From the IMG/VR virus record IMGVR_UViG_3300045988_104080, positions 1 to 52,391 of that record: a stretch of 52,391 nt of DNA. The stretch is one strand, 5' to 3'. Below, one piece after another: positions 10,623 through 52,391 of the stretch. How positions within the stretch are numbered: position 1 is the stretch's first letter; each line of letters opens with the position of its first letter. The DNA comes from a virus. Made by a program: the position numbers and the translations under genes. The notes under the pieces were generated by a model that saw only the letters and a list, made by a program, of their open reading frames with translations, did not search any database and had not been told where the DNA came from.

Positions 10623-10729
10623 TCGGTCCCCGAACTCGTCGAACGCGAACAACGTGCGCTACGTGAACTCGGACGGGAGCCTCAACAACAACAACGCGTA
10701 CAACGGCAACAGGGGCGTGCGCCCGGCTT
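10623..10729 (+). repeat. DGR template repeat (TR)
   Basis: 107 nt with 27 adenines in an AAC-rich pattern. It matches VR1 (12597-12703) and the last 82 nt match VR2 (32562-32643), with mismatches only at TR adenines. Confidence 0.9.
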
Positions 10730-10895
10730 CGGTGGAAACTGCGATTGAGTAGCCCGAAAGGGTGAAAACAGAAGCCTACCATCAAAGGAAAGCGTATCCC
10801 ACCGCAGCCTGACAGGGCAGCGGTAAACACATAGCGTTGACGCCTGGCAGCTTGCACAGTGGAGCTATCAGGCTATTAGCAACGGAGGTCCCCTT
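10730..10895 (+). ncRNA. DGR RNA spacer region between TR and RT (probable structured priming region)
   Basis: Non-coding 166 nt with local hairpins (CCCGAAAGGG at 10753-10762; GCCTG...CAGGC around 10843-10874). By analogy with characterised DGR RNAs; not verified. Confidence 0.35.
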
Positions 10896-12119: not shown

Positions 12120-13650
12120 TGCCACGGAGAGCGGCGGAAACTCCGACCGCCAGAGTTGGGGTAACAACCGCATGGTCCTGGCGAACATCCGCCAGTGGCT
12201 CAATAAGAGTGGCGCCGGTTGGTACCAGGCGCAGCACAGCTATGACCGCCCGCCCTCCAACGCCTATGTCTGGAGCAACTACAACGAGTACGACGGGCAG
12301 CCCGGCTTCCTCACTGGCTTCGGCCCGGAGATGCTGGCAGCACTGCTCACCACGACCCTGACCGTCGCCAAGCCCACCACGGACGGCGGCGGCTCCGAAA
12401 CCTTCCAGGACAAGGTGTTTCTGCCGTCCATGGCCGAGGTTGGCCTCGGGGCAGAAAACGGCATCAACGAGGGTTCGAAGCTGGCCCTGTTCAGCGACAA
12501 CAACAGCCGGAAGGCGTACCCCACGCCCCAGGCGGTCAGCAACAGCGAATATACCAGCAGCTCGTTGACTGCTTCGCAGCCGTGGTGGTGGTGGCTTCGG
12601 TCCCCGTACTCGTCGTACGCGGGCTACGTGCGCTGCGTGTACTCGGACGGGAGCCTCAACAGCCGCAGCGCGTACGACGGCCACTGGGGCGTGCGCCCGG
12701 CTTTGAATCTGTCCTCTAATATCTTGGTATCTGATACCCCGGATAGCGAGGGCTACTACACAATCGTCTGGAACAACAACCCGACCACACCCCCGTCTAT
12801 CGCCGTTCCCGAGACGGTGCGAAGTGGGAAAAACCTGGACATTACCTGGTCGGCGTCCGTTGACCCGGACGGCGACCAGGTGAGCTATGAGCTGGAGCGG
12901 CAGCACAACAACGGCGGCTGGACCAAAATTTACAGCGGGAACGCCACCAAGCACACCGACACCGGGATCACCGGCGACATGAATACCGTGACCTACCGCG
13001 TCCGGGCGAAGGACAGCAAGGGCGCATACAGCGCCTACACCACCAGCCCGACGCGAACCGTGACGCATAACGTGGACCCCACGATCAGCGGCACGAACCA
13101 GAACCTTGGAGCGATCTCGACGCCTCCGAGCTATCAGTACACCGTCGGCGACAACGATGAAGCCGACACCCTGAAAGTGGTGGAGAGCCTGGACGGCGTG
13201 GAAGTTCGGACCATCGAGAACGCGGAGCGCAAAAAGAGCTATACCTTTGCTCTGACTGCGGCGCAGTTCTCCAGCCTCACCGGTCAGCACACCATGAGCA
13301 TCAAGGTCACTGACAGCGCCGGGAACAGCGTTACCAGGACGATCACCTTCACCCGTAACGTCAGCCGCATTGACTTCGACTGGAAGGTCGGCGACACGAC
13401 TGCTGCGGCCGAAAAAATCCTGGTGTCCATGCGTTACAACGCACACGAGGACGATGTCCTGGTCCAGGTCTGCAACAACTTCAACGACGCATCCCCCGCC
13501 TGGGAAACCGTCACGGTTGGCCTCAAGCATATGTTCTCGAACAAGGTCAAGACTGCCGCGAGCTGGGCGGTGGGCATCCGCGTCACCATCGGCAAGACGA
13601 AGGGCTGGGACTCCATCTCGTGCTACTCTCTGTCTGCCAGCTACATCTAA
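11950..13650 (+). CDS. DGR target protein 1 (lectin-like variable domain followed by FN3/Ig-like domains; probable receptor-binding protein)
   Basis: 566 aa, RBS AAAGGAGTG. Contains VR1 (..WWWLRSPYSSYAGYVRCVYSDGSLNSRSAYDGHWGVRPAL..). It is followed by an FN3-like segment (..LDITWSASVDPDGDQVSYELER..YRVRAKDSKGAYSAY..) and further beta-rich repeats. Confidence 0.85.
   Translation: MSQKISALPVGAKVRDTKTKYYGVPIPFQIADKNHTGYPANSVTLVTEKIIKLCCFDATESGGNSDRQSWGNNRMVLANIRQWLNKSGAGWYQAQHSYDRPPSNAYVWSNYNEYDGQPGFLTGFGPEMLAALLTTTLTVAKPTTDGGGSETFQDKVFLPSMAEVGLGAENGINEGSKLALFSDNNSRKAYPTPQAVSNSEYTSSSLTASQPWWWWLRSPYSSYAGYVRCVYSDGSLNSRSAYDGHWGVRPALNLSSNILVSDTPDSEGYYTIVWNNNPTTPPSIAVPETVRSGKNLDITWSASVDPDGDQVSYELERQHNNGGWTKIYSGNATKHTDTGITGDMNTVTYRVRAKDSKGAYSAYTTSPTRTVTHNVDPTISGTNQNLGAISTPPSYQYTVGDNDEADTLKVVESLDGVEVRTIENAERKKSYTFALTAAQFSSLTGQHTMSIKVTDSAGNSVTRTITFTRNVSRIDFDWKVGDTTAAAEKILVSMRYNAHEDDVLVQVCNNFNDASPAWETVTVGLKHMFSNKVKTAASWAVGIRVTIGKTKGWDSISCYSLSASYI
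12597..12703 (+). repeat. DGR variable repeat 1 (VR1)
   Basis: 107 nt aligned without gaps to the TR. There are 14 differences, all at TR adenines (14 of 27 A), and none at C/G/T. Confidence 0.9.
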
Positions 13651-26374: not shown

Positions 26375-29300
26375 ATGAAAATACTTCACACCGGCGACAT
26401 CCACCTGGGAGACCTGGCAGGCCCCACCAAGGACGGCCGGAACCTGCGCCGGGAGGACACCATCCGCTGCATGGAGGAGATTTACTGCCGGGCCTTCCTT
26501 GAGGAGCCCGATCTCACCATAATCGCCGGGGACCTGTTCAACCGGTCCCGCGTGTGGGCGGACACCGCCCTGGAGGATGTAAACGACGCCCTGGAGCGGT
26601 TCATCATCCCGCTGTGCAAGTGCAGCGACGCCGTGGTGCTGCTGTTCGGCACCATGAACCATGACAACCCCAGGGCCTTCGAGCTTATCAAGAGGGCCAC
26701 CAGGGACCTCAAGAACCTGCACATCTACACAGAGCCGAAGGTGGAGGAGATCACCACCAGCAGCGGCGCGGTTCAGATCGTGGCCGTCCCCGGCTTCGAC
26801 AAGGCCCGGCTCCGACTGTTTTGCCCCGGGGTGGACAAGGAGACGGAAAGCCGGAACGCCACCGCGCTTATCAACGACATCGCCCTGGGCCTGTCCACGG
26901 AGCTGGACAAGTCGAAACCGTCCATCCTGGTGGCTCACTATACGGTCAGCGGAAGTGAGGCGGACAACGGCTCCACCTTCCTGGCCGGTCAGGACGTTGT
27001 GGTGCTCCCGGCGACCATCGACGCCATGGGCGTGGACCTGGCCTGCTTCGGCCACATCCACAAGCCGCAGCGCCTCGTGTGCCAGACACCGGCCTATTAC
27101 TGTGGTTCGGTCAATCAGCTCACCTTCAACGACGAGGGCACCGACCACGGCTTCTACATCCACACCATCGACGGCCAGGTCTCCAGTGAGTTTGTGGGGA
27201 CGCCGGAGCGAAAGCACTACACCCTCCGCCTCTCCCCGGACGACGTTGCCGCCTTCATCACCGAAGGCGTGGCGCCGACACCGGCGGGGATCGCCAATGC
27301 CGTTGTCCGGGTCCGTTACTCCTGCACTGCGGAGCAGGACAAGGCCTTCAACCGGGCGGAGCTCCAGAAGCGGCTTATGGAGGCCGGGGCCTTCTATGTT
27401 GCCGAGGTAATGCCGGAGGACGTTGAGGAGCTGGACGCCAAGGACCAGCTTACGGAGCACGACGGCCCGGCCGAGTGCCTGGGCCGCTGGCTGGCTACCA
27501 ACGGCGTGGAGCCGGAGAAGGCAGCTCGTCTCTCCGAGCTGGCCGCGCCGATCATCAAGCAGGCGGACGACGGCCGGGGGGACAGCAAGCACACCGGCGC
27601 ATTTTCCCCGCGCTCCATCGAGGTCAAGAACTACCGCAGCTACACGGCCGCGAGCTTCGACTTCGAGCCGGTTCACATGGCCATGGTCAACGGCCCTAAT
27701 GGCGTGGGCAAGTCCAGCCTGTTCATGGACGCCCTGGCTGATTGCCTGTACGAGCAGACCCGCAAGGAGGACATTGGCGGCTGGGTGAGGGATGGCACCA
27801 AGAGCGGCAGCATTACCTTCACCTTCGGCCTGGGCGGACAGGATTACCGGGTTATCCGCACCAGGACCAAGAGCGGGCGCGGCACCCTGGCGCTCCAGCG
27901 CTGGGACGCAGACGGTCAGGCATGGGCCGACGAGAGCGACACCACCATGAAGCTGACGCAGGCCCGCATTGAGCGGCTGCTCGGTATGGACTGCACCACG
28001 TTCTGCTCCATAGCCCTCATCCGTCAGGATGCCTACGGCCTATTCCTGGAGGCCGGGAGCGATCAGCGCATGGCCGTCCTGTCCGCCCTCCTGGGCCTGG
28101 ACATCTACGGCAGGATGGAAGACCTGGCGAAGGCTGCTGCCACAGAGCAGCGCCGGAAGCTGGCGGCCATCCGGGAGCGCAGCGCCATCCTTGACGAGAC
28201 CATCCGGCAGTTGGATGCGGTCAAGAGCGAAGATGACAGGCTCGCGGAGGAGGTGGAGGCCGTCGAAAGCTCCATCAAGGGCCGGGAGGCAGCCCTTCGG
28301 GCGGCAGAAGCCAACGAAGCCCTCCGGCAGGAGATCACCCGGCAGATCGAGGAGAAGCGGCGACTGGCAAAGGACTACCGCCTCCAGGCGGCAGACAAGG
28401 CAAGCAGATACCTCGACCTCGAAGCGGAGCGCTCGGAGGCTTGCGCTGCGGCTGATGGCCTGGAGGACGCCGTAAAGGCGGCGGAGCGGGTCAAGGTGGC
28501 CCGGGAGATCATGCAGCGTGTGGCGCCGGATGTGGAGCGGGACAAGGAGCTCTTGAAGGAACGGTCCTGGGCAACCAATGAGATATTGTCTTCCGACCAG
28601 AGGGTGAAGCGGCTGGAGAGTGAAAAGAGCCGGAACGAGTTCGTCCTCTCGAAAAGAGAGGCGGTCGAGAAGGCCAAGAAGGAGCTGTCCGAGCTGGCCG
28701 AAAAGAAGGACGCCATCCGGCGCAGGCTGGCAGAGCTGGAGACTGCGAACGCTTCGTACCGCGATGCGAAGGCGGAGAGCGACCGGTATCTCCAGGAGGC
28801 TAAATCAGACATCCGGGTGCGTGAAGCGGAAATCCAGAGGGCGCAGGAAGAAGCGGCTCGCCTGGAGGACAGCGGGTGCCCAGTTCCCGAGACGGCGACC
28901 TGCAAGTTCCTGTCCGCTGCCGTCAAGTGTAAGCAGACACTCCCCGGTATGCTTGATGATCTGGAGGCTGCCAAGGCCGGGCGCCGCAAACGCTACGATG
29001 AACTCAAGGCCGCTGCCGATCAGGCCAAGGCGGCCCTCGACTCCTTTGGCAACCCGCTGGGGGAGCTGTCTGAGTTGGAGGAACGGGAGCGGAACTTGCG
29101 GGAGATTGCATCCAAGGAAGCTGATATTTCGGCTGCTGCTGCGGCTCTCGAAAAAATTGAGGAATCCATCCTGGAGGCAAGGGAGACGACGGACAAGGCC
29201 CTATCTCGAATCAAAGAGATCGACCTTGAGCGGGAACGCCTTACGCAGTCTGTTACCGCCTACCAGGAAGCAGACGGAGACATCCGGTGTTTCTCCGAGT

Positions 29301-30151
29301 TGGCCGACGAGCTGCCTGAATGTCAGGCGGGAGCCGCCAAGGCCGAGGCCCTAGCTCCACAAATCGCCCAGATCAAAGCAGAGACGGCGGAGCTCCGGCG
29401 GAAGTCGGAGGATATGGAGCGAGAGGCGGAGGAGATCGCAGCCAGGGTGCCGGACGCCGGGAGCTCGGTGGACCGTATCCGCGCTGACATTGACCGGCAG
29501 CGGAACGAACTTACCGACCTGGTGACCCGCCGGGGGCAGCTCAAGGCGAAGCTGGAGGACATCGCGGAGGCCGAGACCAAGTCCCGGGAGCTTCGCCGGG
29601 AGGCGGAGGAGACGGGCGTTGTCCTGAACGACTACACCACTCTGGCCCAGGCATTTGGCCTGGATGGCATCCAGTACATGATTGTGCGCGGGGTCGTGCC
29701 GGAGATCATGCGCCGCTCCAACGAAATCCTGGCAGCGATGACCGGCGGCAGAATGGCGGTGGACATCCGCACGGAGCGGGAGCAGAAGTCTACCAAACAA
29801 GTGGTCAATAGCCTGGAGGTCTGGATTAACACCATCACGGGCGGGACGCGCCCCTATCTGTCCCACAGCGGCGGCGAGAAGGTCAAGATTGCTCTGGCCG
29901 TTACTCTGGGTCTGGCGGACGTCAAGGCCCGCCGTGCGGGGGTCCAGCTCGGGATGCTGTTCATCGACGAGCCCCCCTTCCTGGACGCGGATGGCACAGA
30001 GGCCTATGCCGACGCATTGACCGCGATGGCGGCCCGGAACCCGAACATGAGAATACTTGCTATTTCTCACGACCCAACCATGAAGGCCAGGTTCGTGCAG
30101 AACATCGTGGTAACCGGCGGAGACGACGGCAGCACGGTCACGATGGAATAA
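26375..30151 (+). CDS. SbcD-SbcC (Mre11-Rad50-like) fusion nuclease/ATPase
   Basis: 1258 aa. N-terminal calcineurin-like phosphoesterase motifs (GDIHLG, GDLFN, GTMNHD, GHIH). Walker A GPNGVGKSS near aa 450, about 600 aa of coiled coil, signature LSHSGGEKV, Walker B LFIDEPP and ISHD. Confidence 0.85.
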   Translation: MKILHTGDIHLGDLAGPTKDGRNLRREDTIRCMEEIYCRAFLEEPDLTIIAGDLFNRSRVWADTALEDVNDALERFIIPLCKCSDAVVLLFGTMNHDNPRAFELIKRATRDLKNLHIYTEPKVEEITTSSGAVQIVAVPGFDKARLRLFCPGVDKETESRNATALINDIALGLSTELDKSKPSILVAHYTVSGSEADNGSTFLAGQDVVVLPATIDAMGVDLACFGHIHKPQRLVCQTPAYYCGSVNQLTFNDEGTDHGFYIHTIDGQVSSEFVGTPERKHYTLRLSPDDVAAFITEGVAPTPAGIANAVVRVRYSCTAEQDKAFNRAELQKRLMEAGAFYVAEVMPEDVEELDAKDQLTEHDGPAECLGRWLATNGVEPEKAARLSELAAPIIKQADDGRGDSKHTGAFSPRSIEVKNYRSYTAASFDFEPVHMAMVNGPNGVGKSSLFMDALADCLYEQTRKEDIGGWVRDGTKSGSITFTFGLGGQDYRVIRTRTKSGRGTLALQRWDADGQAWADESDTTMKLTQARIERLLGMDCTTFCSIALIRQDAYGLFLEAGSDQRMAVLSALLGLDIYGRMEDLAKAAATEQRRKLAAIRERSAILDETIRQLDAVKSEDDRLAEEVEAVESSIKGREAALRAAEANEALRQEITRQIEEKRRLAKDYRLQAADKASRYLDLEAERSEACAAADGLEDAVKAAERVKVAREIMQRVAPDVERDKELLKERSWATNEILSSDQRVKRLESEKSRNEFVLSKREAVEKAKKELSELAEKKDAIRRRLAELETANASYRDAKAESDRYLQEAKSDIRVREAEIQRAQEEAARLEDSGCPVPETATCKFLSAAVKCKQTLPGMLDDLEAAKAGRRKRYDELKAAADQAKAALDSFGNPLGELSELEERERNLREIASKEADISAAAAALEKIEESILEARETTDKALSRIKEIDLERERLTQSVTAYQEADGDIRCFSELADELPECQAGAAKAEALAPQIAQIKAETAELRRKSEDMEREAEEIAARVPDAGSSVDRIRADIDRQRNELTDLVTRRGQLKAKLEDIAEAETKSRELRREAEETGVVLNDYTTLAQAFGLDGIQYMIVRGVVPEIMRRSNEILAAMTGGRMAVDIRTEREQKSTKQVVNSLEVWINTITGGTRPYLSHSGGEKVKIALAVTLGLADVKARRAGVQLGMLFIDEPPFLDADGTEAYADALTAMAARNPNMRILAISHDPTMKARFVQNIVVTGGDDGSTVTME

Positions 30152-31752: not shown

Positions 31753-32106
31753 TTGGAACAGATCACCTTTGACGAGCTCCTGGCCGGAGCTGCACCGGGC
31801 CCCGGCCCGCCGGAAGGGGTACGGGACCTACCTGGGTTTGAGGAGGCGCGAGAGCGTCTGCGGAGCAAGGGGTTTCCATACGGCTGGGTAGACAAAGTGG
31901 TTACCCCGGACGAGCCTGGGGCCGTATTTGTGAAGAAGGGCATCCCGTTTGAACGTAGTAGCTGCCCGGAATATGAAGGGATTTGGCTATGCGGGGGATT
32001 TAGCTCAGTTCAATGCAACGCCCACAACGGACTATTGCCCGGAATGATGTGGGACACGACCTGCGGGAAGAACCCGGAGCAGTGCCCATTCCGGCAGAGA
32101 AACTAA
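31753..32106 (+). CDS. Hypothetical protein
   Basis: 117 aa, TTG start 8 nt after GGGAGG. Confidence 0.45.
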   Translation: MEQITFDELLAGAAPGPGPPEGVRDLPGFEEARERLRSKGFPYGWVDKVVTPDEPGAVFVKKGIPFERSSCPEYEGIWLCGGFSSVQCNAHNGLLPGMMWDTTCGKNPEQCPFRQRN

Positions 32107-32123
32107 AAATTGGAGGAAGAAAC

Positions 32124-33005
32124 ATGAACGTCAAACTGAACACGCTGCGCCGTGGCGACACCTTCACCCTGGCCGGTATCAACTGGATGGTGCTCAAGGA
32201 GCTTGAGCCTGCCTACTCTGGCGCCGTGCAGAACTACTTCTGCGAGGCCGTGGCCGATCTTTTCCAGGACGCCTTCGACAATGATGGCAACAACAACTGG
32301 AACGGGGCCAGCCTGCGGGAGCGCCTGAATGGCGAGTTCCTGGAGAACCTGGAGAAGGAGCACCCCGGTATCCTGGGGTCCATCGTGCCCACCTACCGCG
32401 ATCTGACCGCTGACGACGGCCTCAACGACTACGGGGCCTGCCTCGATAAGGTGACCATGCTGACGGCGGATGAATACCGGGAGACCCGCGATCTCCACCC
32501 GGCCCCTGAGCACTGGCGCTGGCTCATCACCGCAGATGGGACGCCTGCCAGCTCCGGCACCTCCTACGTGCGCTACGTGAGCTCGGACGGGAGCCTCGGC
32601 TACACCGGCGCGTGCTACGGCACCGGGGGCGTGCGCCCGGCTTTGACCCTGAAATCCGACATCTTGGTATCTGTCGATGACGGGGAAGATCAGCCGGAGG
32701 AGCTGGAGGAGATGTCCCAGGAACAGCGCGAGATGGCGATCTACGAGAAGGCCGTCTCCAAGTGGGGCAAGCGCGCCCAGGCGCTCAAGGCCATCGAGGA
32801 AATGAGCGAGCTGTCGCAGGCGATCTTGAAGCTGGTATTCTTTGAGGACTGCGGCATCGGCGACGAGGAGGCCATCCGGGAGAACATCTCCAAGGAGCGG
32901 GCTGACGTCGAGATCATGCTTAACCAGCTCCACGTCATCTTCGGCGACAACAGCGAGATGGAGTGCAAGTGTTTGGACGACCTGGAAAAACGGCTGGAGG
33001 AATGA
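32124..33005 (+). CDS. DGR target protein 2: lectin-like variable domain fused to a MazG-like all-alpha NTP pyrophosphohydrolase domain
   Basis: 293 aa, RBS GGAGGAAG. The N-terminal domain resembles that of target 1 (GD.F.LAGINWMVL ... WRWL). Contains VR2. C-terminal motifs AIEEMSELSQAILK and ERADVEIMLNQL are MazG/HisE-type. Confidence 0.8.
   Translation: MNVKLNTLRRGDTFTLAGINWMVLKELEPAYSGAVQNYFCEAVADLFQDAFDNDGNNNWNGASLRERLNGEFLENLEKEHPGILGSIVPTYRDLTADDGLNDYGACLDKVTMLTADEYRETRDLHPAPEHWRWLITADGTPASSGTSYVRYVSSDGSLGYTGACYGTGGVRPALTLKSDILVSVDDGEDQPEELEEMSQEQREMAIYEKAVSKWGKRAQALKAIEEMSELSQAILKLVFFEDCGIGDEEAIRENISKERADVEIMLNQLHVIFGDNSEMECKCLDDLEKRLEE
32562..32643 (+). repeat. DGR variable repeat 2 (VR2, remote)
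   Basis: 82 nt aligned without gaps to TR 10648-10729. There are 14 differences, all at TR adenines (14 of 23 A), and none at other bases. Confidence 0.85.
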
Positions 33006-33373: not shown

Positions 33374-34189
33374 ATGAGCCTACACAAAAGCAAAATTGAG
33401 TGGTGTACCCACACCTGGAACCCGGTGACCGGGTGCCTGCATGGCTGCCCCTATTGCTACGCCCGGCGATTCACGGACCGGTTCAAGCCGCACCCCTGTG
33501 AGCGCCCAGGCGTCGAGCCGCTGGAGGTGCTGCCGAAGGGGTCCGGGTGCTACTACCTGGAGAGCCCCGTGCAGCTCTATGACGAGACCGGAGCTCACGT
33601 CCGGCCGACGCCGTACCCCAAGGGCTTCGCCCCTACCTACCACGCTTACGCCATGGACCTCCCGGCCAAGCGGGCTATCCCGTCCCGGGTGTTCGTCTCC
33701 AGCATGGGGGACCTGTTCGGGGATTGGGTGCCGGACATCTGGATTCAGGATGTCTTCGACGCCTGCGACAAGGCCCCGCAGCACACCTACCTGTTCCTCA
33801 CCAAGAACCCGCAGCGCTATTGTGACCTGGCAAACGCCGGGAAGCTTCCAAAACGGGACAACTTCTGGTACGGGACCAGCGTGACCGGGAAGGGCGCTCC
33901 CCTATTTGCAACCAGCGTGGACTTCAATACCTTCTTGAGCATCGAACCGCTCATGGAGAACCTGGAAGCCGGTCTTGGTAGCTTTGGAGGTGTCCGGTGG
34001 GTCATCATCGGGGCCATGACGGGCCCGGGAAGCACGCAGCACCAGCCGAAGCGGGAGTGGGTGGAAAACATCGTTGAGGCCGCAGGCCTCACCCGTGCCG
34101 CAGTCTTTATGAAGGACAGCCTGGCACCCATCTGGGGGCCGGACCTCATCAGAGATCACCCGGAGGGCATGGTATGGCCGGAGAAATGA
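33374..34189 (+). CDS. Phage Gp37/Gp68 family (DUF5131) protein
   Basis: 271 aa. The N-terminal KIEWCTHTWNPVTGCLHGCPYCYA is the family hallmark; here the cysteines have CX3CX2C spacing. Confidence 0.75.
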   Translation: MSLHKSKIEWCTHTWNPVTGCLHGCPYCYARRFTDRFKPHPCERPGVEPLEVLPKGSGCYYLESPVQLYDETGAHVRPTPYPKGFAPTYHAYAMDLPAKRAIPSRVFVSSMGDLFGDWVPDIWIQDVFDACDKAPQHTYLFLTKNPQRYCDLANAGKLPKRDNFWYGTSVTGKGAPLFATSVDFNTFLSIEPLMENLEAGLGSFGGVRWVIIGAMTGPGSTQHQPKREWVENIVEAAGLTRAAVFMKDSLAPIWGPDLIRDHPEGMVWPEK

Positions 34190-37387: not shown

Positions 37388-37474
37388 CCGAAGGTAACAA
37401 AAAAGAGCCGCCTCCCCCGAAGGGGTGACAGCCCGTGACTATTGCTATCATACCACGGAGGAGGCGACTTTTCA

Positions 37475-37981
37475 ATGGGAAATCGAAAGGAACTTGAGGA
37501 CATTATCAAACTGGCGGTAGAGGCTGGCCGCATCTCTGCGGAGCGGTCTGCCAAAGACGCCTACAAGGCCACGGAGCGCCGCCTCTACGCGCTCCCTATC
37601 CTTCGACGCAAGCTGGCCGATGACAAGGAGCGTCTGGAGGAAATCAGGCAGTACGGGCCCAGAGAGCGGAGCAAGAGCATTACTCGCTTCTCGAAGTCCG
37701 GGGTGCGCCTGTCGCCCGAGGAAATCTTCGAGGCGGTTGTTATGGACATGGAGGCCACCATCGCGGCCGATCAGTATGAGATCGACGCCATGGACAAGGC
37801 CCTATCTGTCATCCAGGAAGACGAATACTACCTGACCGTAACCGGCAGGTACCTGGATGATCTGCCAGACGAGCGTGTTGCAGAGCTCATCCCGTGCGAC
37901 ACGAGCACTGTTTGGCGAAACCGGAAGCGCCTGGTGCAGCGCCTCGCGGTATGGCTTTATGGAGCCGACGCCACGAAGTAG
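37475..37981 (+). CDS. Sigma-70 region-4-like / ArpU-RinA-type late transcription regulator
   Basis: 168 aa from ATG 37475 (RBS GGAGGAGG). C-terminal HTH ..RVAELIPCDTSTVWRNRKRLVQRLAVWL... It is the last gene before the late operon. Confidence 0.55.
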   Translation: MGNRKELEDIIKLAVEAGRISAERSAKDAYKATERRLYALPILRRKLADDKERLEEIRQYGPRERSKSITRFSKSGVRLSPEEIFEAVVMDMEATIAADQYEIDAMDKALSVIQEDEYYLTVTGRYLDDLPDERVAELIPCDTSTVWRNRKRLVQRLAVWLYGADATK

Positions 37982-37984
37982 CGG

Positions 37985-38027
37985 GTGCAATTTACCGGTG
38001 CAAAAATCGTGCAATAGACGGGTGCAA
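37985..38027 (+). promoter_or_regulatory. Array of four direct GTGCAA hexamers (putative regulator binding sites)
   Basis: GTGCAA at 37985, 37998, 38009 and 38022 (spacing 13/11/13 nt). CGGGTGCAATTTACC occurs twice. Confidence 0.5.
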
Positions 38028-38036
38028 TTTACCTGT

Positions 38037-38045
38037 GTTATAATG
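38037..38045 (+). promoter_or_regulatory. Extended -10 promoter element
   Basis: TGTTATAAT directly downstream of the GTGCAA array. Confidence 0.45.
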
Positions 38046-38156
38046 CAACACAATGAGGTAATGTGTTTAGGGGGTTTCAGCTCCTCCCGTCTTTGTGCTG
38101 ATTTGGCGGTAAATCCAAAATAAGTTACAAAAACTTTCGATTTTTTGTTGAAAGCT

Positions 38157-38185
38157 GTGACAAGGATTCCGAAAAGTGGTATAAT
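38157..38185 (+). promoter_or_regulatory. Late-operon promoter
   Basis: GTGACA, 17-nt spacer, TATAAT with an upstream TGg (extended -10). Confidence 0.7.
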
Positions 38186-38221
38186 ATGAGTGGGAAATAC
38201 TAACCAAAGGAGCGAAACGCC

Positions 38222-38707
38222 ATGAAAAAGATTTGCCTTTTAGACCTCAACTACACCCTGGTTGGGAACCAGGCGGAGACCCGGATGCTCCGGCCCTTCG
38301 CCCGCCGCATGGAGGCGGAGGAGTACCGGCTCGACCTGATCGACGCCATCAAGGATGACTATGTCATCATTGTCACAGCGAGACCGGACTACCAGATGCG
38401 GCAGACGATGGAGAACATCCGCCGAAAGACTGGATGGCAGCCGGACGAGTGGTACTTCAACGACATCAACGCAGAGCCCCCCGTCTTCAAGGAGAGCGCC
38501 CTTCGCCGCTTCATCTTCCCGAAGCACGGCCTCCAGATGGGGCCGGAGGGGACCTACTATTACGCCGTTGAGAGCAACCCGAAGACCAGGACGATGTATA
38601 ACCGGTTCGGAATCAAGGGGCAGCCCTACGACGTCTTCATGCGGAGCGTGAGGCCGGAGGCGGCCGTGGCTCCGCAGCCTACCTACTGCCAGGTAAGTCT
38701 ATTCTGA
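38222..38707 (+). CDS. HAD-like hydrolase-fold protein
   Basis: 161 aa, RBS AAAGGAG. Motif-I-like LLDLNYTLV and motif-II-like IIVTARP; the second Asp of DxD is Asn. Confidence 0.4.
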   Translation: MKKICLLDLNYTLVGNQAETRMLRPFARRMEAEEYRLDLIDAIKDDYVIIVTARPDYQMRQTMENIRRKTGWQPDEWYFNDINAEPPVFKESALRRFIFPKHGLQMGPEGTYYYAVESNPKTRTMYNRFGIKGQPYDVFMRSVRPEAAVAPQPTYCQVSLF

Positions 38708-38778
38708 ATACTGCCCACCAGCGGGACGCGAAAGCGCCCCGCTTTTTTCATGCCAAAATCAAGAAAGGAGAGAGATGA

Positions 38779-39387
38779 TTGAGAACCCAGACCATCAAAC
38801 TGGCCGACATCAAGCCGGCCGAATACAACCCACGGGTGACTTTGACTGAGAAAGATCACGAATACAAGGCCCTGTCGGCCAGCATCGAGGACAACGGCCT
38901 GGTCCTTCCTCTGGTGGTAAATCTCCGGGACAACGTCCTCATCAGCGGACACCAGCGCCTCAACGTGCTGCTGGCATCTGGTGAGACGGAGACTGAGGCG
39001 GTCGTGGTTGACATGGACCCGGCACAGGCGAAGGCTCTGTGCATCGCTATGAACAAGCTCGACGGCGAATGGGACAACGGCAGTCTTGCAGACCTCCTTC
39101 AGGAGCTCCAGGACGAAAGTGCGGACCTCCTGGGCACCGGCTTCACCCGCCAGGAGATCGACGAGCTGTTGGGGGACATCGGGGGCGCGGACGATGATGA
39201 CGACCCGCCTACCACTGACAAGAAGAAGGACGACAAGGAGGGCATCAAGTGCATCGTCGGAGACTATACCTTCCGCCTGACCGAAGATGAGTTCGCAGAC
39301 CTCATGGTGGACGTGCGTGAAGCGGTGGGCTTTACGCAGGAGCTCATCTGTGCGGAGCTGAAAAGGAGGCTGTTCGATGCGGTATAA
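38779..39387 (+). CDS. ParB N-terminal-domain (ParB/Srx-like) protein, paralogue 1
   Basis: 202 aa, TTG start after AAAGGAGAG. ..IKPAEYNPR.., ..ISGHQRLNV.., an acidic linker, and a C-terminal module IVGDYTFRL...ELKRRL. Confidence 0.75.
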   Translation: MRTQTIKLADIKPAEYNPRVTLTEKDHEYKALSASIEDNGLVLPLVVNLRDNVLISGHQRLNVLLASGETETEAVVVDMDPAQAKALCIAMNKLDGEWDNGSLADLLQELQDESADLLGTGFTRQEIDELLGDIGGADDDDDPPTTDKKKDDKEGIKCIVGDYTFRLTEDEFADLMVDVREAVGFTQELICAELKRRLFDAV

Positions 39388-40051
39388 GACCATCTATAAA
39401 ACCTTGCCGTTGGCGGAGATCGTCGAGTGCCCGTATAACCCCCGTGTTTCCATCGAGAGAGACACGCCGGAGTATGAGGCTCTGCGCCGCAGCCTGGAGC
39501 AGCATGAGGTGGTGGAGCCCCTGGTGGTGAACATCCACAACATGAGGTGCGTGGGTGGAAATCAGCGCCTCGCGGTCATGCGGGACATGGGGATCACCGA
39601 GGCCCTGTGCTCCATCATCGACCAGCCCGATGAGGTCCAGGAGAAGAAGCTCTGCCTGGCCCTGAACCGGATAGACGGCCGGTGGGACACCGACAAGCTG
39701 GGCGATCTGCTGCGGGACGACGGCGTCCTGGAGTGGGAGACCGGCTTCGACGAGGCGGAGGTCCGTCTATACCGGCAGCTTGATGATGCCCAGGAGCCGG
39801 ATGCCGACGACGACACCGAAGACCTGGACGACCTGGAGGACGAAGACCAGGAGGAGCCCGAGCCGGAAGACGAAGAAGATGCGCCCGAGGAGGGCACGGT
39901 CAATACCACGGTCATCCGCATCGGCCACTATTCCTTCAAGGTTGAGTATTCTGCCTACAAGCGTCTGGTGGACACCATCATGGATGACGGCGTTTTCTCT
40001 GGACCGGACATCGAGGCGGAGATCAAGAGGAGGCTGTTGGAAAATGATTGA
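39377..40051 (+). CDS. ParB N-terminal-domain protein, paralogue 2
   Basis: 224 aa. ..VECPYNPR.., ..VGGNQRLAV.., about 40 aa of Asp/Glu-rich linker, and a C-terminal module IGHYSFKV...EIKRRL paralogous to the previous gene. Confidence 0.75.
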   Translation: MRYKTIYKTLPLAEIVECPYNPRVSIERDTPEYEALRRSLEQHEVVEPLVVNIHNMRCVGGNQRLAVMRDMGITEALCSIIDQPDEVQEKKLCLALNRIDGRWDTDKLGDLLRDDGVLEWETGFDEAEVRLYRQLDDAQEPDADDDTEDLDDLEDEDQEEPEPEDEEDAPEEGTVNTTVIRIGHYSFKVEYSAYKRLVDTIMDDGVFSGPDIEAEIKRRLLEND

Positions 40052-41591
40052 GCTCGTACCCATTGAATCCGTTCACGCCTCGGAGTACAACCCCCGGCGG
40101 AACGACGAAAAGCGCCTGGCCTTGACGGAGCTGTCCCTCCGAAAGCTGGGCTTCCTGCTGCCGATCTACGCAGACCGCAGCGGGGAAATCTTGAGCGGGC
40201 ATCAGCGGCACCTTGTCGCCTCCCGCATAGGCTTCACCCAGATTCCGGTCGAGTATGTCAGCGGAAAGGACCTGGGAGAGCGGAAGGCTGTGAACGTCCT
40301 TTTCAACCGGGCGACCAACGACCTCCAGAAGCAAGACACCTGCGACATCATCCGGCGCCGTCTCTATGAGATGGACGTGGAAAGCATGGTGGACGGCCTG
40401 CCGGACATCGACCCCGGCACAGACGCCGCCTTCCCGTGCGTCTTCGGCCTGGTGCGCCGGGACACTGTGCAGCTGGCTAAGGCCAATCACCGGAAGTTCG
40501 ACACTCACACCCGCCAGCTCGCCAAGAGCCTGGAGCGCCGCATCGGGTCGGCCATGCCTATCGTGATCGGCGCAAGCGAGAACGTCATCAACGGAATTGG
40601 ACGCCTCCAGGTGGCAGCGGAGGCCAAGAGACCCGTGGTGCGCTGCGTAGTTGTTTCCAAGGAGCAGGAGGACTTCGCAACAGCGATGCTCAACCTTCTG
40701 TCTATGGACTTCGACATCGCTTCCTATGCGGACGATCTGCGGTATAACTCCTTCATGCGGGAGCGGAACACCCGCGAGACGGACGCAGAGGGAAACGCAG
40801 CTCTGGGCGACGGATTCTTCAAGGGTGTGTTTCCGAAGAACCGGGGCCGGGACTTCTGCAAGCTGGAGGGCGCAGCCCTGGAGGCGTGGCGCCGTCACTA
40901 TGGCTCCAGCGTTGTGGACTTTGGAGCGGGGAAGCTGAACAACACTCGCACGCTGCGGAAGGCCGGTATTCATGTGGCGGCCTTTGAGCCCTACTTTGTG
41001 ACCGTAGGCGAGAATATCCACAAGCCCAAGAGCGTGGAGATCGCTGAGAAGTTCCTTGACGACGTGGAAGCCGGGACGCCGTTCACGTCGGTCTTCATCT
41101 CTAGCGTGTTCAATAGCGTCCCGTTCATGGAAGACCGGAAGCAGATCGCGGTGATCGCCGCAGCTCTGTGTGCTCCGGGCGGCCGGACGGTCTGCTGGTG
41201 CCAGAGCAACAAAGCGCCGCAGTTCGTGAACACTAAGAAGAAGTTTCTGGCTGCCGAGAAGACCTTGACCTTCGATCTGGACTACGAGCCCAACACCATC
41301 CTGGGCGACATCGGGAACCACCCGAAAGCCCAGAAGGGCCACACCGAGGAGGAGATGCGAGAGATATTCGCCCCGTGCTTCCGAAAGGTGGATCGCCTGG
41401 AGATGATTCAAAAATTCTGGTACATGGAGGTGTCGGAGCCAATCGTAGACCCGGCGGCCCTGGGCGCGGCTCTGGACTTTGAGTTTGAGCTTCCGTACCC
41501 GGACGGGACCCGCATGGGGCTGTCTGACCGGGCCCGCAAGGCGTTTGAGCATCGCCTCGGCATCTCCATCCCGAGGAAGGAGAGCGTATGA
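40044..41591 (+). CDS. ParB-like (x2) / class I SAM-dependent methyltransferase-fold fusion protein
   Basis: 515 aa. N-terminal ..ASEYNPR..LSGHQRHLV... A second ParB-like segment ..PIVIGASENVINGIGRLQVA... A Rossmann SAM motif VVDFGAGKL, then AAFEP and VFISSVFNSVP (aa ~285-400). No (D/N/S)PP(Y/F/W) motif. Confidence 0.7.
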   Translation: MIELVPIESVHASEYNPRRNDEKRLALTELSLRKLGFLLPIYADRSGEILSGHQRHLVASRIGFTQIPVEYVSGKDLGERKAVNVLFNRATNDLQKQDTCDIIRRRLYEMDVESMVDGLPDIDPGTDAAFPCVFGLVRRDTVQLAKANHRKFDTHTRQLAKSLERRIGSAMPIVIGASENVINGIGRLQVAAEAKRPVVRCVVVSKEQEDFATAMLNLLSMDFDIASYADDLRYNSFMRERNTRETDAEGNAALGDGFFKGVFPKNRGRDFCKLEGAALEAWRRHYGSSVVDFGAGKLNNTRTLRKAGIHVAAFEPYFVTVGENIHKPKSVEIAEKFLDDVEAGTPFTSVFISSVFNSVPFMEDRKQIAVIAAALCAPGGRTVCWCQSNKAPQFVNTKKKFLAAEKTLTFDLDYEPNTILGDIGNHPKAQKGHTEEEMREIFAPCFRKVDRLEMIQKFWYMEVSEPIVDPAALGAALDFEFELPYPDGTRMGLSDRARKAFEHRLGISIPRKESV

Positions 41592-42283
41592 GAGATAACA
41601 CAAACCCGACCGGGGCATGGGAGTTCAACGGCGAGGTTGCTGCCTGCTTTGCGAATATGCTGGAGCGCAGCATCCCGGACTACCGCTCCATGCGAGCCCT
41701 GGTCTACAAAGCTGGAGAGCGGTTCGTTAAGCCTGACACACTGATTGTTGACATCGGGTGTTCGACCGGCCTGGCGGTGGAACCGTTCGTCACCAGGCAC
41801 AAGAAGGAAAACGCCTTCCTGCTGATCGACAATGCGGAAGCCATGGCGCAGGCCTGCCGGGACCGCTTTGGCTCCGAGCCATCCGTCACGGTGAAAGAAG
41901 GAAACCTGTGGGAATATTTACCGTTTGAAAGAGACGCGAGCCTGGTCCTGTCCGTTCTGTCGATGCAGTTCATGCCCACGTCATATCGGCGCTTCATGCT
42001 GCGCCATATTTGCGACAGCATGATTGAGGGCGGCGCTCTGATCTACGTTGAGAAGGTTGTGGCCGGAAGCCTGGACGATCTGATGGTGGACCTCTACTAC
42101 CAGATGAAACGGGAAAACGGGTACACGGATGAGCAGATCATGGCGAAGCGCCGGAGCCTGGAAAATGTCCTCTCCCCGCTGGAACCTGCGTGGAATGAGA
42201 GCTTGCTCAAGGAGGCAGGCTTCCGCAAGGTCGAAATGTTCTGGCGCTGCCTTAACTTCTGCGGGTGGATTGCCGTGAAATAA
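41588..42283 (+). CDS. cmoA: CmoA-family carboxy-S-adenosylmethionine synthase homologue
   Basis: 231 aa, colinear with E. coli CmoA as I recall it: [22 protein letters not shown] / [30 protein letters not shown] / [16 protein letters not shown] / [17 protein letters not shown] / [30 protein letters not shown] / [32 protein letters not shown] / CFNFGSLVALK. Confidence 0.8.
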   Translation: [231 protein letters not shown]

Positions 42284-42307: not shown

Positions 42308-42823
42308 ATGCCGAAACGCAGCGATACGAAGCCGTGGGAGCGCCAGGATAAGGAAGGCGAAAAGCCGTTCGAGGCCTTCGTTATATACCGGGATATGGGC
42401 GAGAAGCGCACACTTCAAGCCGTTGCGGACAGGTTGCAGAAAAGTTACACTCTCATACGCCGCTGGAAAGACACCTGGGGTTGGGAAGATCGCGTCCGGG
42501 CTTATGACAACGATTTGCAGCAGAAGGCCCACACGGAGGCGGTCAAGAAGGCCCGCAAGATGGCGGACCGGCATATCGGCATAGCTCTGAAATTGCAGGC
42601 AAAGGCCATGGAGGCGCTGGAGAAGATGAACGCCGAGGACATCGACCCGAAGAACCTGGTGGCCTTCATCAGGGAAGCCACCAAGCTTGAGCGCGAGAAT
42701 CGGCAGGACGTTGTTCAGATGACCAACCCGGACCGCGATGAAGATGGTGGAACCACGAGTCTTGCTGACGTCATTTCCGAGGCATGGGAGAGGAGGCAGA
42801 AGCAGAATGAAAATGACGGCTGA
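42308..42823 (+). CDS. terS: Terminase small subunit
   Basis: 171 aa, RBS AAGGAGAGGAG. HTH-like N-terminus (..FVIYRDMGEKRTLQAVADRLQKSYTLIRRW..), directly upstream of and overlapping terL. Confidence 0.7.
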   Translation: MPKRSDTKPWERQDKEGEKPFEAFVIYRDMGEKRTLQAVADRLQKSYTLIRRWKDTWGWEDRVRAYDNDLQQKAHTEAVKKARKMADRHIGIALKLQAKAMEALEKMNAEDIDPKNLVAFIREATKLERENRQDVVQMTNPDRDEDGGTTSLADVISEAWERRQKQNENDG

Positions 42824-44243
42824 TGCAATCCTCTACTACGCCGACAACCCGGTGGACTTCGTGGAGGATGTCATCCGAGCCAAGCCAGACGAGAACCAGA
42901 GGGCCATCTTGAATAGTGTGGCCCGGTACCCCATGACATCCGTGAGAAGTGGACACGGCATAGGCAAGAGCGCGGTGGAGAGCTGGCTTGCAATCTGGTT
43001 CCTGACTACCCGGCCCTATCCCAAAATACCCTGTACGGCACCTACGCAGCACCAGCTATGGGACATCCTGTGGGCCGAGATTGCGAAGTGGTTGAGAAAC
43101 AACCCAGCCCTGGCAAATGACCTGATCTGGACGAAAGAGAAGGTCTACATGAAAGGACACCCGGAGGAATGGTTTGCCGTAGGACGAACGGCCAGCAAGC
43201 CGGACGCCCTCCAGGGCTTCCATGCTGACCATGTGCTCTATATCATCGACGAGGCCTCTGGCGTCAAAGATGAGATATTCGAGCCTATCCTCGGTGCGCT
43301 GTCCACCGAAGGCTCAAAGCTGCTGATGTGTGGAAACCCCACCAAGATCACCGGCTTTTTCTATGACAGCCACCACAAGAACCGCGAGCAGTTCAACGCC
43401 ATGCACATTGACGGCCGCAGCTCCAGCCGAGTGGACCAGGAGTTCGTCGATACCATCATTGATATGTTCGGAGAGGACAGCGACGTGTTTCGCGTCCGTG
43501 TGGCCGGGGAGTTCCCCAGGGCACTTCCTGACAGCTTTATACCGATGGAATGGGCGGAGAGGGCCAGCGAGGCGGAGGCCCCGCAGATCGAGCGCGTGTC
43601 CCGCGTGGACATCGGCATTGACGTTGCCCGCTATGGTGACGATAGCTCCGTCATCTCCCCTGTCCTGGACCGAAGGCTCCAGGAGCAGCCGGAGATTTAC
43701 CACCACAACGACACCATGCAGATTACCGGTATGGCCGTTGTCTGTATCAAGAAGCACGCCAGAGAACACCCCTGGGCGGAAATCCATGTGAAGATCGACT
43801 GTGACGGCCTGGGTGTCGGCGTGTTCGACCGCCTCATGGAGCTCAAGGGGCAGATCATGGAGGAGATCGAGGTAGACCGGGAGAGGATCTATGAAGGCAG
43901 CGACGAGGCACCGCCTCCGCTGTCCCTGGAGATCGTCGAGTGCCACTTCGGAGGAGAGGGCGGCACCGTGAACGACGCCGACCCGGTCGAGTACCAGACC
44001 AGCACCGGCCTGATGTGGGGCACCATCCGGGAGGCCCTGCGGACCCAGAGCCTCAAGTTGTGGCCTGACGACAAGCAGATTTCGCAGCTTTCCAACCGCC
44101 GCTACATCGTCAACAGCGCGGGCAAGATCGAGCTGGAGAAGAAGGAGGCCATGAAAAAACGTGGCCTGTCCTCACCGGATATGGGCGACGCGCTGGCACT
44201 GGCGCTCTACGACCCGTTGGTGAGCGACTGGAGCATCAACTAA
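42807..44243 (+). CDS. terL: Terminase large subunit
   Basis: 478 aa. Walker A-like SGHGIGKS, Walker B LYIIDEASG, and a nuclease-domain acidic motif ..GIDVARYGDDSSV... Confidence 0.9.
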   Translation: MKMTADAILYYADNPVDFVEDVIRAKPDENQRAILNSVARYPMTSVRSGHGIGKSAVESWLAIWFLTTRPYPKIPCTAPTQHQLWDILWAEIAKWLRNNPALANDLIWTKEKVYMKGHPEEWFAVGRTASKPDALQGFHADHVLYIIDEASGVKDEIFEPILGALSTEGSKLLMCGNPTKITGFFYDSHHKNREQFNAMHIDGRSSSRVDQEFVDTIIDMFGEDSDVFRVRVAGEFPRALPDSFIPMEWAERASEAEAPQIERVSRVDIGIDVARYGDDSSVISPVLDRRLQEQPEIYHHNDTMQITGMAVVCIKKHAREHPWAEIHVKIDCDGLGVGVFDRLMELKGQIMEEIEVDRERIYEGSDEAPPPLSLEIVECHFGGEGGTVNDADPVEYQTSTGLMWGTIREALRTQSLKLWPDDKQISQLSNRRYIVNSAGKIELEKKEAMKKRGLSSPDMGDALALALYDPLVSDWSIN

Positions 44244-52016: not shown

Positions 52017-52391
52017 CATTGACGCGAAGCCCGCCGGTACTGAGAGCCTGGACATTCTCCTGGTCTCCACGGAAGGGGCAAAGGATGTCGCTACCTACCG
52101 CGATCTGGAAGTCATCAAGACCGACTTCACCGGGAAGAAGGTTGCCGATATGGCCGAAGCCCTGTTCAACCAGGGCAAGACCACCCTGGCAACCACCCTC
52201 ATCCGCAAGGTGAAAATCCTTGGCATCGAGGCCCCGTCCGGCTCTGGGGAGTCCGAGAAGGCCGCAGCCGTGGTTGCCGCCATCGAGGAGTTCCGCGAGA
52301 AGGACGACGACTGGTACATCCTGCTCATCGACCAGAGCGGCGATGAATATGTCAAGGCCCTGGCGGCCTGGGCAGAAAGCACCGAGCCCAC
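51988..52391 (+). CDS. Tail sheath protein, N-terminal part (continues at 56-728 after circularisation)
   Basis: ATG 51988 with RBS AAGGAGTG (MPKDVIVVVDIDAKPAGTESLDILLVS...). Open to the window end and in frame with 3-728. Confidence 0.85.
   Translation, partial: MPKDVIVVVDIDAKPAGTESLDILLVSTEGAKDVATYRDLEVIKTDFTGKKVADMAEALFNQGKTTLATTLIRKVKILGIEAPSGSGESEKAAAVVAAIEEFREKDDDWYILLIDQSGDEYVKALAAWAESTEP
52337..52391. repeat. Terminal 55-bp overlap (second copy)
   Basis: Identical to 1-55. Confidence 0.9.

Follow-up and report, generated by a model that had tools for sequence, protein, structure and literature searches.

A candidate carboxy-SAM-dependent DNA modification cassette next to the terminase genes of a temperate phage

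The window analysed here is a stretch of 52,391 nucleotides, that is, the whole of the IMG/VR virus record IMGVR_UViG_3300045988_104080, with a G+C content of ~60%. On its + strand a cassette of five genes (38157-42283) runs from a promoter-like site to the terminase genes terS and terL. These genes encode a protein with a haloacid dehalogenase (HAD) fold, two standalone ParB proteins that we call ParB1 and ParB2, a fusion of two ParB domains with a methyltransferase fold that we call PMT, and a homologue of CmoA, the synthase of carboxy-S-adenosylmethionine (Cx-SAM). We estimate at around 50% the probability that the cassette modifies DNA with the help of Cx-SAM, as a module expressed late and acting after replication, in which PMT would probably represent a second, undescribed transferase family for this kind of modification. 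An earlier note, made from the sequence alone, had already proposed that Cx-SAM made by the phage is used by a DNA-tethered methyltransferase fold to modify the phage DNA. This proposal has gained support from the gene linkage, from PMT being the sole candidate consumer in the genome and from a parallel cluster in the Streptomyces phage TurkishDelight, although its premises on novelty are out of date.

Bases 1-55 of the window are found again at 52337-52391 as an exact direct repeat. A terminal repeat of 55 nt is typical of an assembler overlap, and the genome of this temperate phage of a gut bacterium, which the window covers completely, is circular (or circularly permuted) and has ~52,336 bp. 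Genes for an integrase, a repressor, an SbcCD fusion and RecU are also present, as is a diversity-generating retroelement, and the closest relatives of the phage are prophages in Flavonifractor, Pseudoflavonifractor and other Oscillospiraceae.

The promoter-like site (GTGACA-17-TATAAT, 38157-38185, + strand) matches the consensus at 11 of 12 positions, has an extended -10 TG and lies 37 nt before the first cassette gene; sites of this quality occur 4 times in the 5.6-kb region, against 1.6 expected from shuffles. Then follow the genes of the HAD-fold protein (38222-38707, 161 aa), ParB1 (38779-39387, 202 aa), ParB2 (39377-40051, 224 aa), PMT (40044-41591, 515 aa) and the CmoA homologue (41588-42283, 231 aa), all of them on the + strand and with a GGAG-type ribosome-binding site ahead of each open reading frame (ORF). 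The next genes on the same strand are terS (42308-42823; phrog_6299 E 4.5e-40, Pfam Phage_terminase E 1.8e-4) and terL (42738-44243; phrog_2 E 3e-45). The earlier note had described this arrangement, with the near-consensus promoter, the five ORFs and the terminase genes at these same positions, and all of it was recovered. Its count of four overlapping or abutting junctions, however, has to be corrected, because there are overlaps at three junctions (11, 8 and 4 nt) and gaps at the other two (71 and 24 nt). The stop codon of PMT overlaps the start codon of the CmoA homologue (ATGA), and these two genes are probably translationally coupled.

Regarding the CmoA homologue, the protein is full-length, as previously claimed. 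It matches TIGR00740 with an E of 2.7e-45 and 154.9 bits over model positions 11-239 of 239, and its residues 9-231 match the E. coli CmoA structure 4GEK (E 3e-33). The score is under the NCBI equivalog cut-off of this family, which is 193.3 bits. Nevertheless, the CmoA of Synechococcus phage S-B43 (SpCmoA), whose synthesis of Cx-SAM has been verified by experiment and was faster than that of the E. coli enzyme (PMC12783734), reaches only 115.6 bits, lower than the window protein, to which it is 29% identical. Therefore, the cut-off is tuned to cellular orthologues and is uninformative for phage enzymes. Arg199 of E. coli CmoA, the only side chain that touches the carboxylate of Cx-SAM (PMC4482062), is conserved in the window protein, whose KRR is aligned to K198-R199-S200. 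These likenesses point strongly to a protein that would make Cx-SAM from S-adenosylmethionine (SAM) and prephenate, and it is the sole plausible source of Cx-SAM in the phage genome.

Some further observations concern the CmoA family. The position of Arg199 is occupied by Glu in the verified S-B43 enzyme (locus L087, 3962-4657) and by Ala, Thr, Asn or Glu in several further phage homologues, and Lys198 is invariant in 25 of the 25 CmoA sequences compared. The next-best PDB matches of the window protein after CmoA are 9FCE, 9FCD and related entries labelled 'SAM-dependent methyltransferase' (E 2e-13 to 1e-7). Jumbo phages of Erwinia, Dickeya and Yersinia carry a CmoA homologue that is 44% identical to it; in the Erwinia phage vB_EamM_Y3 (locus L084, 4989-7580) this gene is adjoined by an asparagine-synthase-like gene and a 2-oxoglutarate (2OG)-Fe(II) oxygenase, with no transferase in the 5-kb flanks.

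The start codon of PMT is backed by homologues of 515-521 aa, and its AlphaFold2 (AF2) model has a predicted local distance difference test (pLDDT) score of 91.4 and a predicted template modelling (pTM) score of 0.86. Its residues 1-110 (40044-40373, + strand) form a first ParB-N domain with the box LSGHQR, which hhalign aligned to the N domain of ParB1 at 99.7% (E 2e-25). Residues 120-240 (40401-40763, + strand) form a second, degenerate ParB-N-like domain with NGIGR, aligned to that of ParB1 at 97.7% (E 1.7e-12) and to the first PMT domain at 96.5%. Foldseek matched PMT to CTP-bound structures of the CTPase domains of ParB and Noc, and a BFVD fold search returned generic ParB matches only. 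The rest of the protein, residues 241-515 (40764-41591, + strand), is a divergent class I (Rossmann) methyltransferase fold according to the AF2 model, to Foldseek, which gives a probability of 1.0 to many class I methyltransferases, and to the conservation described below. Thus, the two ParB-like segments fused to a Rossmann SAM-binding fold that the earlier note had recognised are well founded.

The sequence matches of this methyltransferase fold are distant. The best match in the PDB profile search was UbiG (E 9e-4), the match to Pfam Methyltransf_23 is weak (E 7e-4) and under the gathering score, and the PHROG family, phrog_5475, is annotated as of unknown function. The motifs VVDFGAGKL, AAFEP and VFISSVFNSVP, also listed before, are present. 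Homologues with identities as low as 22% share, without variation, the residues D292-F-G-A-G296, E315-P316, N357-S358, E415, Q430-K431, H433 and F479-E-F481, which include the glycine-rich motif I (DFGAG) and the acidic motif II (E315) of class I enzymes. The segment after strand 4 reads S-S-V-F-N-S-V-P-F; N357 aligns with Tyr200 of CmoB in a weak alignment, and the weak alignments to UbiG and CmoB put N357-S358 in the segment beside the transferred group. K431, H433 and R365 are candidate ligands of the carboxylate or of the substrate. As the earlier note had pointed out, PMT has no in-frame (D/N/S)PP(Y/F/W) amino-methyltransferase motif. It also has no match to PF00145, and both the SPPC motif and the context of a catalytic Cys are missing. 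With the profile and structure searches run, it stands apart from the ordinary N6A, N4C and C5 DNA methyltransferases. In 1.84 billion proteins, the methyltransferase domain forms 312 representative clusters, nearly all of them with the same architecture of ~500 aa, which suggests that it is essentially restricted to the fusion with ParB.

The two standalone proteins are organised in a similar way. ParB1 has an N-terminal domain of the nucleoside triphosphate (NTP)-binding type with the box SGHQR, an acidic linker and a small C-terminal domain, and ParB2 has a GGNQR box, a longer acidic linker and a C-terminal domain homologous to that of ParB1. Both match ParB_N in Pfam (E 3.5e-5 and 6e-3 respectively), as does PMT. 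When the two proteins were compared with hhalign, the E was 5e-48 for the N domains and 2.4e-18 for the C-terminal domains, which means that they are true paralogues over both domains, in agreement with the paralogy previously suggested. The C-terminal segment of PMT (FEF..LPYPDG) was tried as a homologue of this C-terminal domain and rejected (hhalign <1%). The four ParB-N domains of the cassette align with each other at 96-100%, with the Box II GxxR variants SGHQR in ParB1, GGNQR in ParB2, and SGHQR and NGIGR in PMT. ParB1 belongs with phrog_620 (E 1e-45) and, in fusions of ParB with DNA methyltransferases, matches the ParB part (phrog_498 E 3e-37; PADLOC MTase_II E 3e-29); the ParB domains of both standalone proteins are closest to those joined to genuine phage DNA methyltransferases.

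The first gene of the cassette encodes a protein that has no sequence match in Pfam, NCBIfam or the PDB, the PDB search being empty even at E 10, and that falls into a PHROG family of unknown function (phrog_32036). Its AlphaFold model (pLDDT 91.1), however, is a capless HAD fold whose Foldseek matches are polynucleotide 3'-phosphatase domains, with an E of 2e-5 for T4 Pnkp and a TM of 0.64 for Pnkp1. The HAD-like nature of the protein was therefore rightly proposed, but motif I is D8-L-N10-Y-T12, i.e. DxNxT and not DxDxT. The Asn is found in 55 of 57 homologues and is replaced by His in the other two, whereas D8, T52, K90 and E117-S118-N119 are invariant in the 57 sequences. Thus, the nucleophilic Asp, the motif II Thr and the motif III Lys of HAD enzymes are present, but the general acid at Asp+2 is missing and motif IV is E-S-N instead of DD. 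A missing Asp+2 is a typical trait of those HAD members, e.g. the haloacid dehalogenases, whose attack is on carbon and not on phosphorus, and it would fit a chemistry on the carboxymethyl group. The protein is 39% identical to gp4 of Gordonia phage Evaa, annotated as 'phosphatase', and among 50,697 phage records it was found only in this phage.

The gene linkage argues for a common function. We surveyed PMT loci in 79 IMG/VR viral contigs (43-97% identity) and 80 PMT loci in a one-genome-per-species collection, and so carried out the search for co-occurrence of CmoA with ParB-methyltransferase fusions that the earlier note had recommended. A CmoA-like gene adjoins PMT in 78 of the 79 viral contigs, the exception being a contig that ends right after PMT, and in 74 of the 80 prophage loci, where the exceptions are three truncated contigs and three loci that truly have no such gene. 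Eight or more bacterial phyla are represented in this adjacency. For the prophage loci, the host groups are Bacillota, Bacteroidota, Verrucomicrobiota, Pseudomonadota, Cyanobacteriota, Planctomycetota and Chloroflexota, and they include Oscillospiraceae, Lachnospiraceae, Akkermansia, Alphaproteobacteria and Vibrio. The gene order varies (HAD-ParB-ParB-PMT-CmoA-terS-terL or PMT-HAD-CmoA) but the gene set is kept, the HAD gene being present in about 90% of the untruncated PMT loci. The module recurs in about 150 independent loci and therefore the arrangement is far beyond chance.

PMT is also found beside CmoA in isolated phages, namely Gordonia phage Evaa, the Pseudomonas SM1/PaMx31 group and Aeromonas phage HJ05. 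The module of Evaa consists of a ParB gene, PMT (39% identity), the 'phosphatase' mentioned above, a CmoA-like gene and the terminase, while those of SM1 and HJ05 are without the HAD gene. The position next to terS and terL is kept across distant phages. In a tree, the CmoA genes that stand beside PMT are interleaved with those beside CmoX or CmoY, the transferase and the ligase of the published system described below, and the CmoA of Evaa is 51% identical to that of TurkishDelight. One would expect such interleaving of a CmoA that provides both transferases with one and the same cofactor.

We also looked for other possible consumers of Cx-SAM in the window. Neither a C5 methyltransferase nor a CmoX was found in its six-frame translation, by phmmer with M.HhaI and by a scan for in-frame [GS]PPC; gp123 of TurkishDelight, with PF00145 at E 1e-53 and GSPPC, served as positive control of the C5 search. 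A phmmer search gave no CmoB homologue in the window, no amino-methyltransferase motif turned up in the genome, the tRNA and Rfam scans of it were empty, and it contains no amide ligase of the CmoY type. According to Pfam, none of 20 early and middle genes is a ligase, a kinase or a nucleotide-metabolism gene that could supply a pre-modified base. Besides the CmoA homologue, PMT is the only methyltransferase fold in the genome, which leaves no other candidate for the use of the cofactor.

The earlier note had taken CmoB as the only known consumer of Cx-SAM and had no knowledge of a DNA modification that uses it. Both statements have been overtaken. TglF, MccB's C-terminal domain and CmoX are Cx-SAM users as well (PMC10491745, PMC12783734), and Yang et al. 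(Nat Commun, December 2025) reported that the CmoA of phage S-B43 makes Cx-SAM, which is used by CmoX, a C5-methyltransferase homologue with SPPC and Arg350, to make 5-carboxymethylcytosine, and that CmoY ligates glycine to this base to give a glycine amide (PMC12783734). In the same work, ParBc proteins were common in the contigs with CmoA and CmoX, and phage CmoA was explicitly described as linked to no transferase other than the C5 type, with no candidates for N6A or N4C carboxymethylation (PMC12783734). Carboxymethylation of phage DNA with phage-made Cx-SAM is thus already published, but the cassette differs in the transferase family and in the accessory enzyme. Both cluster types have a phage CmoA beside an enzyme of methyltransferase fold, together with ParB proteins, and both probably share a post-replicative, anti-restriction mode. 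Nevertheless, the transferase of the cassette is not a C5 enzyme but a divergent class I fold of the small-molecule type fused to two ParB domains, and instead of a ligase like CmoY there is a HAD-fold protein as conserved third partner.

The cluster of Streptomyces phage TurkishDelight (locus L088, 1689-6717) makes this parallel closer. Located at the right end of the genome and annotated only as 'methyltransferase' and 'glutamine amidotransferase domain', it is a complete cluster of the CmoX type and encodes two ParB paralogues, a C5 methyltransferase with GSPPC, an asparagine synthase/glutamine amidotransferase and CmoA. This is the same layout of ParB, ParB, transferase, tailoring enzyme and CmoA, with CmoX and CmoY in the place where the cassette has PMT.

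The bacterial CmoA/CmoB pair, which makes cmo5U34 in tRNA, is comparable in that the Cx-SAM synthase adjoins a transferase of class I methyltransferase fold, probably with translational coupling. However, PMT has neither the N-terminal domain of CmoB, with its Lys91, nor the Tyr200 and Arg315 that bind the carboxymethyl group, the phage has no CmoB homologue and no tRNAs, the ParB domains of the cassette point to DNA, and the nearest hosts are Oscillospiraceae.

Regarding the ParB proteins, a 2026 paper describes a standalone phage ParB, ParB176, that activates its cognate thymine dioxygenase 5mYOX176 on double-stranded DNA (dsDNA), and reports that ParB and terminase genes are often neighbours of DNA-modification genes (PMC13229309). 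As in the cassette, a standalone ParB with an NTP-binding and a C-terminal domain and no helix-turn-helix stands there beside a post-replicative DNA-modifying enzyme and near the terminase. The enzyme of that system, however, is an Fe/2OG dioxygenase and that of the cassette has a methyltransferase fold, and the cassette has ParB domains fused to the enzyme in addition to two paralogous standalone ParB proteins. PMT belongs to the same architecture class as the known ParB-methyltransferase fusions (CDD cd16402 ParB_N_like_MT, ParB-N6_N4_Mtase and ParB-Methyltransf_23), and the cassette ParB domains match those of the fusions with DNA methyltransferases, although its methyltransferase domain resembles Methyltransf_23 only weakly. 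In a 2025 survey the ParB-Methyltransf_23 fusions were enriched in phages and prophages, with no function assigned, published ParB fusions bound CTP, ATP, GTP or nothing, and neither CmoA nor a HAD partner was mentioned (PMC12704722). A connection between PMT-type fusions and CmoA did not turn up in the literature that we searched, nor did anything on DNA modification in the Samunavirus (SM1/PaMx31) phages.

Taking these comparisons together, the cassette could work as follows. The CmoA homologue would turn SAM of the host and prephenate into Cx-SAM, and the methyltransferase-fold domain of PMT, which would fill the place of CmoX in the published system, would transfer the carboxymethyl group from Cx-SAM instead of using SAM; this use of Cx-SAM is suggested by the gene linkage and by the TurkishDelight cluster. 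By analogy with the phage ParB of the thymine dioxygenase, PMT would be brought to dsDNA, or activated there, by its own two ParB-N domains together with ParB1 and ParB2. The HAD-fold protein, which in isolated phages was found only beside PMT, might process the modified polymer or an intermediate and would not be an ordinary phosphatase, although this role is speculative. With expression from a promoter just ahead of terS and terL, the module would mark concatemeric phage DNA shortly before packaging, likely for protection from restriction in the next host. Since the catalytic Cys motif of C5 enzymes and (D/N/S)PP(Y/F/W) are both missing from PMT, the modified atom may differ from that of 5-carboxymethylcytosine. 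Tentatively, and with less confidence than for the module as a whole, we suggest PMT as the founder of a second family of DNA carboxymethyltransferases that use Cx-SAM, of independent evolutionary origin and widespread in prophages of bacteria from the gut and the environment. The family would need a set of ParB-fold partners to act on duplex DNA, and its chemically new mark, at a place other than cytosine C5, would possibly be processed by the HAD-fold protein.

Some observations weigh against this interpretation, in which DNA modification is inferred from gene content, folds and linkage. The nearest Foldseek neighbours of the PMT methyltransferase domain are the small-molecule or peptide enzymes PhzM, CypM, CcbJ and EgtD; the top 50 contain neither a DNA methyltransferase nor CmoB, and no solved DNA methyltransferase emerged as a relative from the PDB profile search either. 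A relationship to CmoB found no support, since the hhalign probability of the PMT profile with the E. coli protein is 4.7%, not significant and limited to the Rossmann core, and no CmoB-like N-terminal domain exists. N357, K431 and H433 as carboxylate binders are guesses from conservation and weak alignments, and ParB-fold domains can be NTP switches without DNA binding. Furthermore, the three prophage loci without a CmoA-like gene (L127, from a Pseudomonadota metagenome-assembled genome, where terS and terL come directly after the HAD gene, L116 and L118) do have PMT and HAD; their cofactor might come from a CmoA of the host. A CmoA-like gene is likewise missing beside a distant PMT-like variant of Yersinia and E. 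coli phages, whose hosts may have a CmoA of their own. In Yersinia phage vB_YpM_39 (locus L004, 4655-7387) this variant has 457 aa, 23% identity and a Methyltransf_23 match of E 8e-8, keeps N-S-V and Q-K-x-H and has a ParB neighbour, and Escherichia phage vB_EcoM-613R2 is similar. The 239-aa product of the downstream gene in the Yersinia phage was tried as a divergent CmoA and rejected as unrelated. The fold neighbours, to which UbiG can be added, would suit a module that carboxymethylates RNA, a small molecule, or a phage or host protein such as a packaging or head protein, with the ParB domains as NTP switches or interaction modules. Of the four Cx-SAM users that have been characterised, three have tRNA, a peptide or a peptidyl-nucleotide as substrate (PMC10491745), capless HAD folds work on proteins or on the ends of RNA or DNA, and for many ParB-fold proteins the role has nothing to do with segregation (PMC12704722). 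We nevertheless regard an acceptor other than DNA as rather unlikely, because the four ParB-N domains are of the subtype fused to genuine DNA methyltransferases, the layout is that of the DNA-modifying cluster of the CmoX type, the place beside terS and terL is so widely kept, and the phage has neither tRNA genes nor CmoB.

PMT could also be an ordinary SAM-dependent orphan DNA methyltransferase, in which case CmoA would have a separate role, for instance as a drain of SAM, a possibility that the CmoX authors themselves raise (PMC12783734), or as a maker of Cx-SAM that disturbs SAM-dependent defences or tRNA modification of the host. ParB-methyltransferase fusions that simply methylate DNA are indeed common in phages (PMC12704722), neither the conservation of PMT nor the CmoB alignment demonstrates a feature that binds Cx-SAM, and a few PMT loci lack CmoA. 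The linkage data, however, make this explanation unlikely: PMT and CmoA are adjacent almost universally across many phyla despite the shuffled order, their genes are probably coupled through the ATGA overlap, CmoA swaps between clusters of the PMT and CmoX types as fits a supplier of cofactor, and the methyltransferase family of PMT was not seen outside the cassette context. Very improbable, in turn, is an action on DNA or RNA ends tied to terminase cutting, where the HAD-fold protein would dephosphorylate the 3' end and PMT would cap the terminal hydroxyl, by analogy with the repair and protection of ends by bacterial Pnkp/Hen1. The best structural matches of the HAD-fold protein, among them the Pnkp1/Rnl/Hen1 complex, and the constant neighbourhood of the terminase genes would agree with it. 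The protein shares with the T4 Pnkp and Pnkp1 domains the fold, the nucleophilic Asp, the motif II Thr and the motif III Lys, but it differs from them in its DxNxT and E-S-N motifs and in having no kinase domain and no PDB sequence match. The Asp+2 general acid that it lacks is required by phosphatases of the Pnkp type, no kinase or ligase partner is present, and the SM1 and HJ05 modules do entirely without a HAD gene.

The first report of natural DNA carboxymethylation dates from late 2025 and concerns one transferase family, the C5-derived CmoX. The cassette, a module conserved in many bacterial phyla and found among others in prophages of Akkermansia, Flavonifractor and Lachnospiraceae, offers a strong candidate for a second type of transferase. 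As the module is present in culturable phages (Evaa, the SM1/PaMx31 group and HJ05), the prediction of a Cx-SAM-dependent modification is directly testable by nucleoside mass spectrometry. If it is true, a new modification of a DNA base or of the backbone could come to light and, for DNA labelling, a new enzyme scaffold that uses Cx-SAM. The cassette could in addition be the second example of ParB-fold partners for DNA-modifying enzymes and could give the HAD fold a new role other than that of a phosphatase.

Directly upstream of the cassette lies the gene of a transcriptional regulator or late-activator-like protein of 179 aa (37442-37981, + strand), which matches phrog_36 (E 1.5e-11) and has no Pfam match. 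The 240-nt intergenic stretch that follows (37982-38221) contains a second promoter-like site (TAGACG-18-TATAAT, 38015-38044), a weak hairpin plus T-run at 38070-38087, and GGTGCAATTTACC motifs repeated at ~37984 and ~38021. These intergenic elements, the GGTGCAATTTACC repeats included, might be sites bound by the upstream regulator.

Other features lie further away in the window. The diversity-generating retroelement occupies 10623-13650 and 32013-33005, with its template repeat at 10623-10729 and its reverse transcriptase at 10896-12119 (RVT_1 E 1e-15). Its first variable repeat (12597-12703) is 87% identical to the template and is within a DUF6273/Ig-like protein, and the second one (32537-32643, 74%) is within a second DUF6273 protein ~20 kb off. 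A DUF5131 (phage Gp37/Gp68) protein with a Cys-rich motif at its N-terminus is encoded at 33374-34189. Finally, the SbcCD fusion is a single ORF of 1258 aa (26375-30151) that joins a metallophosphoesterase of the SbcD/Mre11 type to an ATPase of the SbcC/SMC type.

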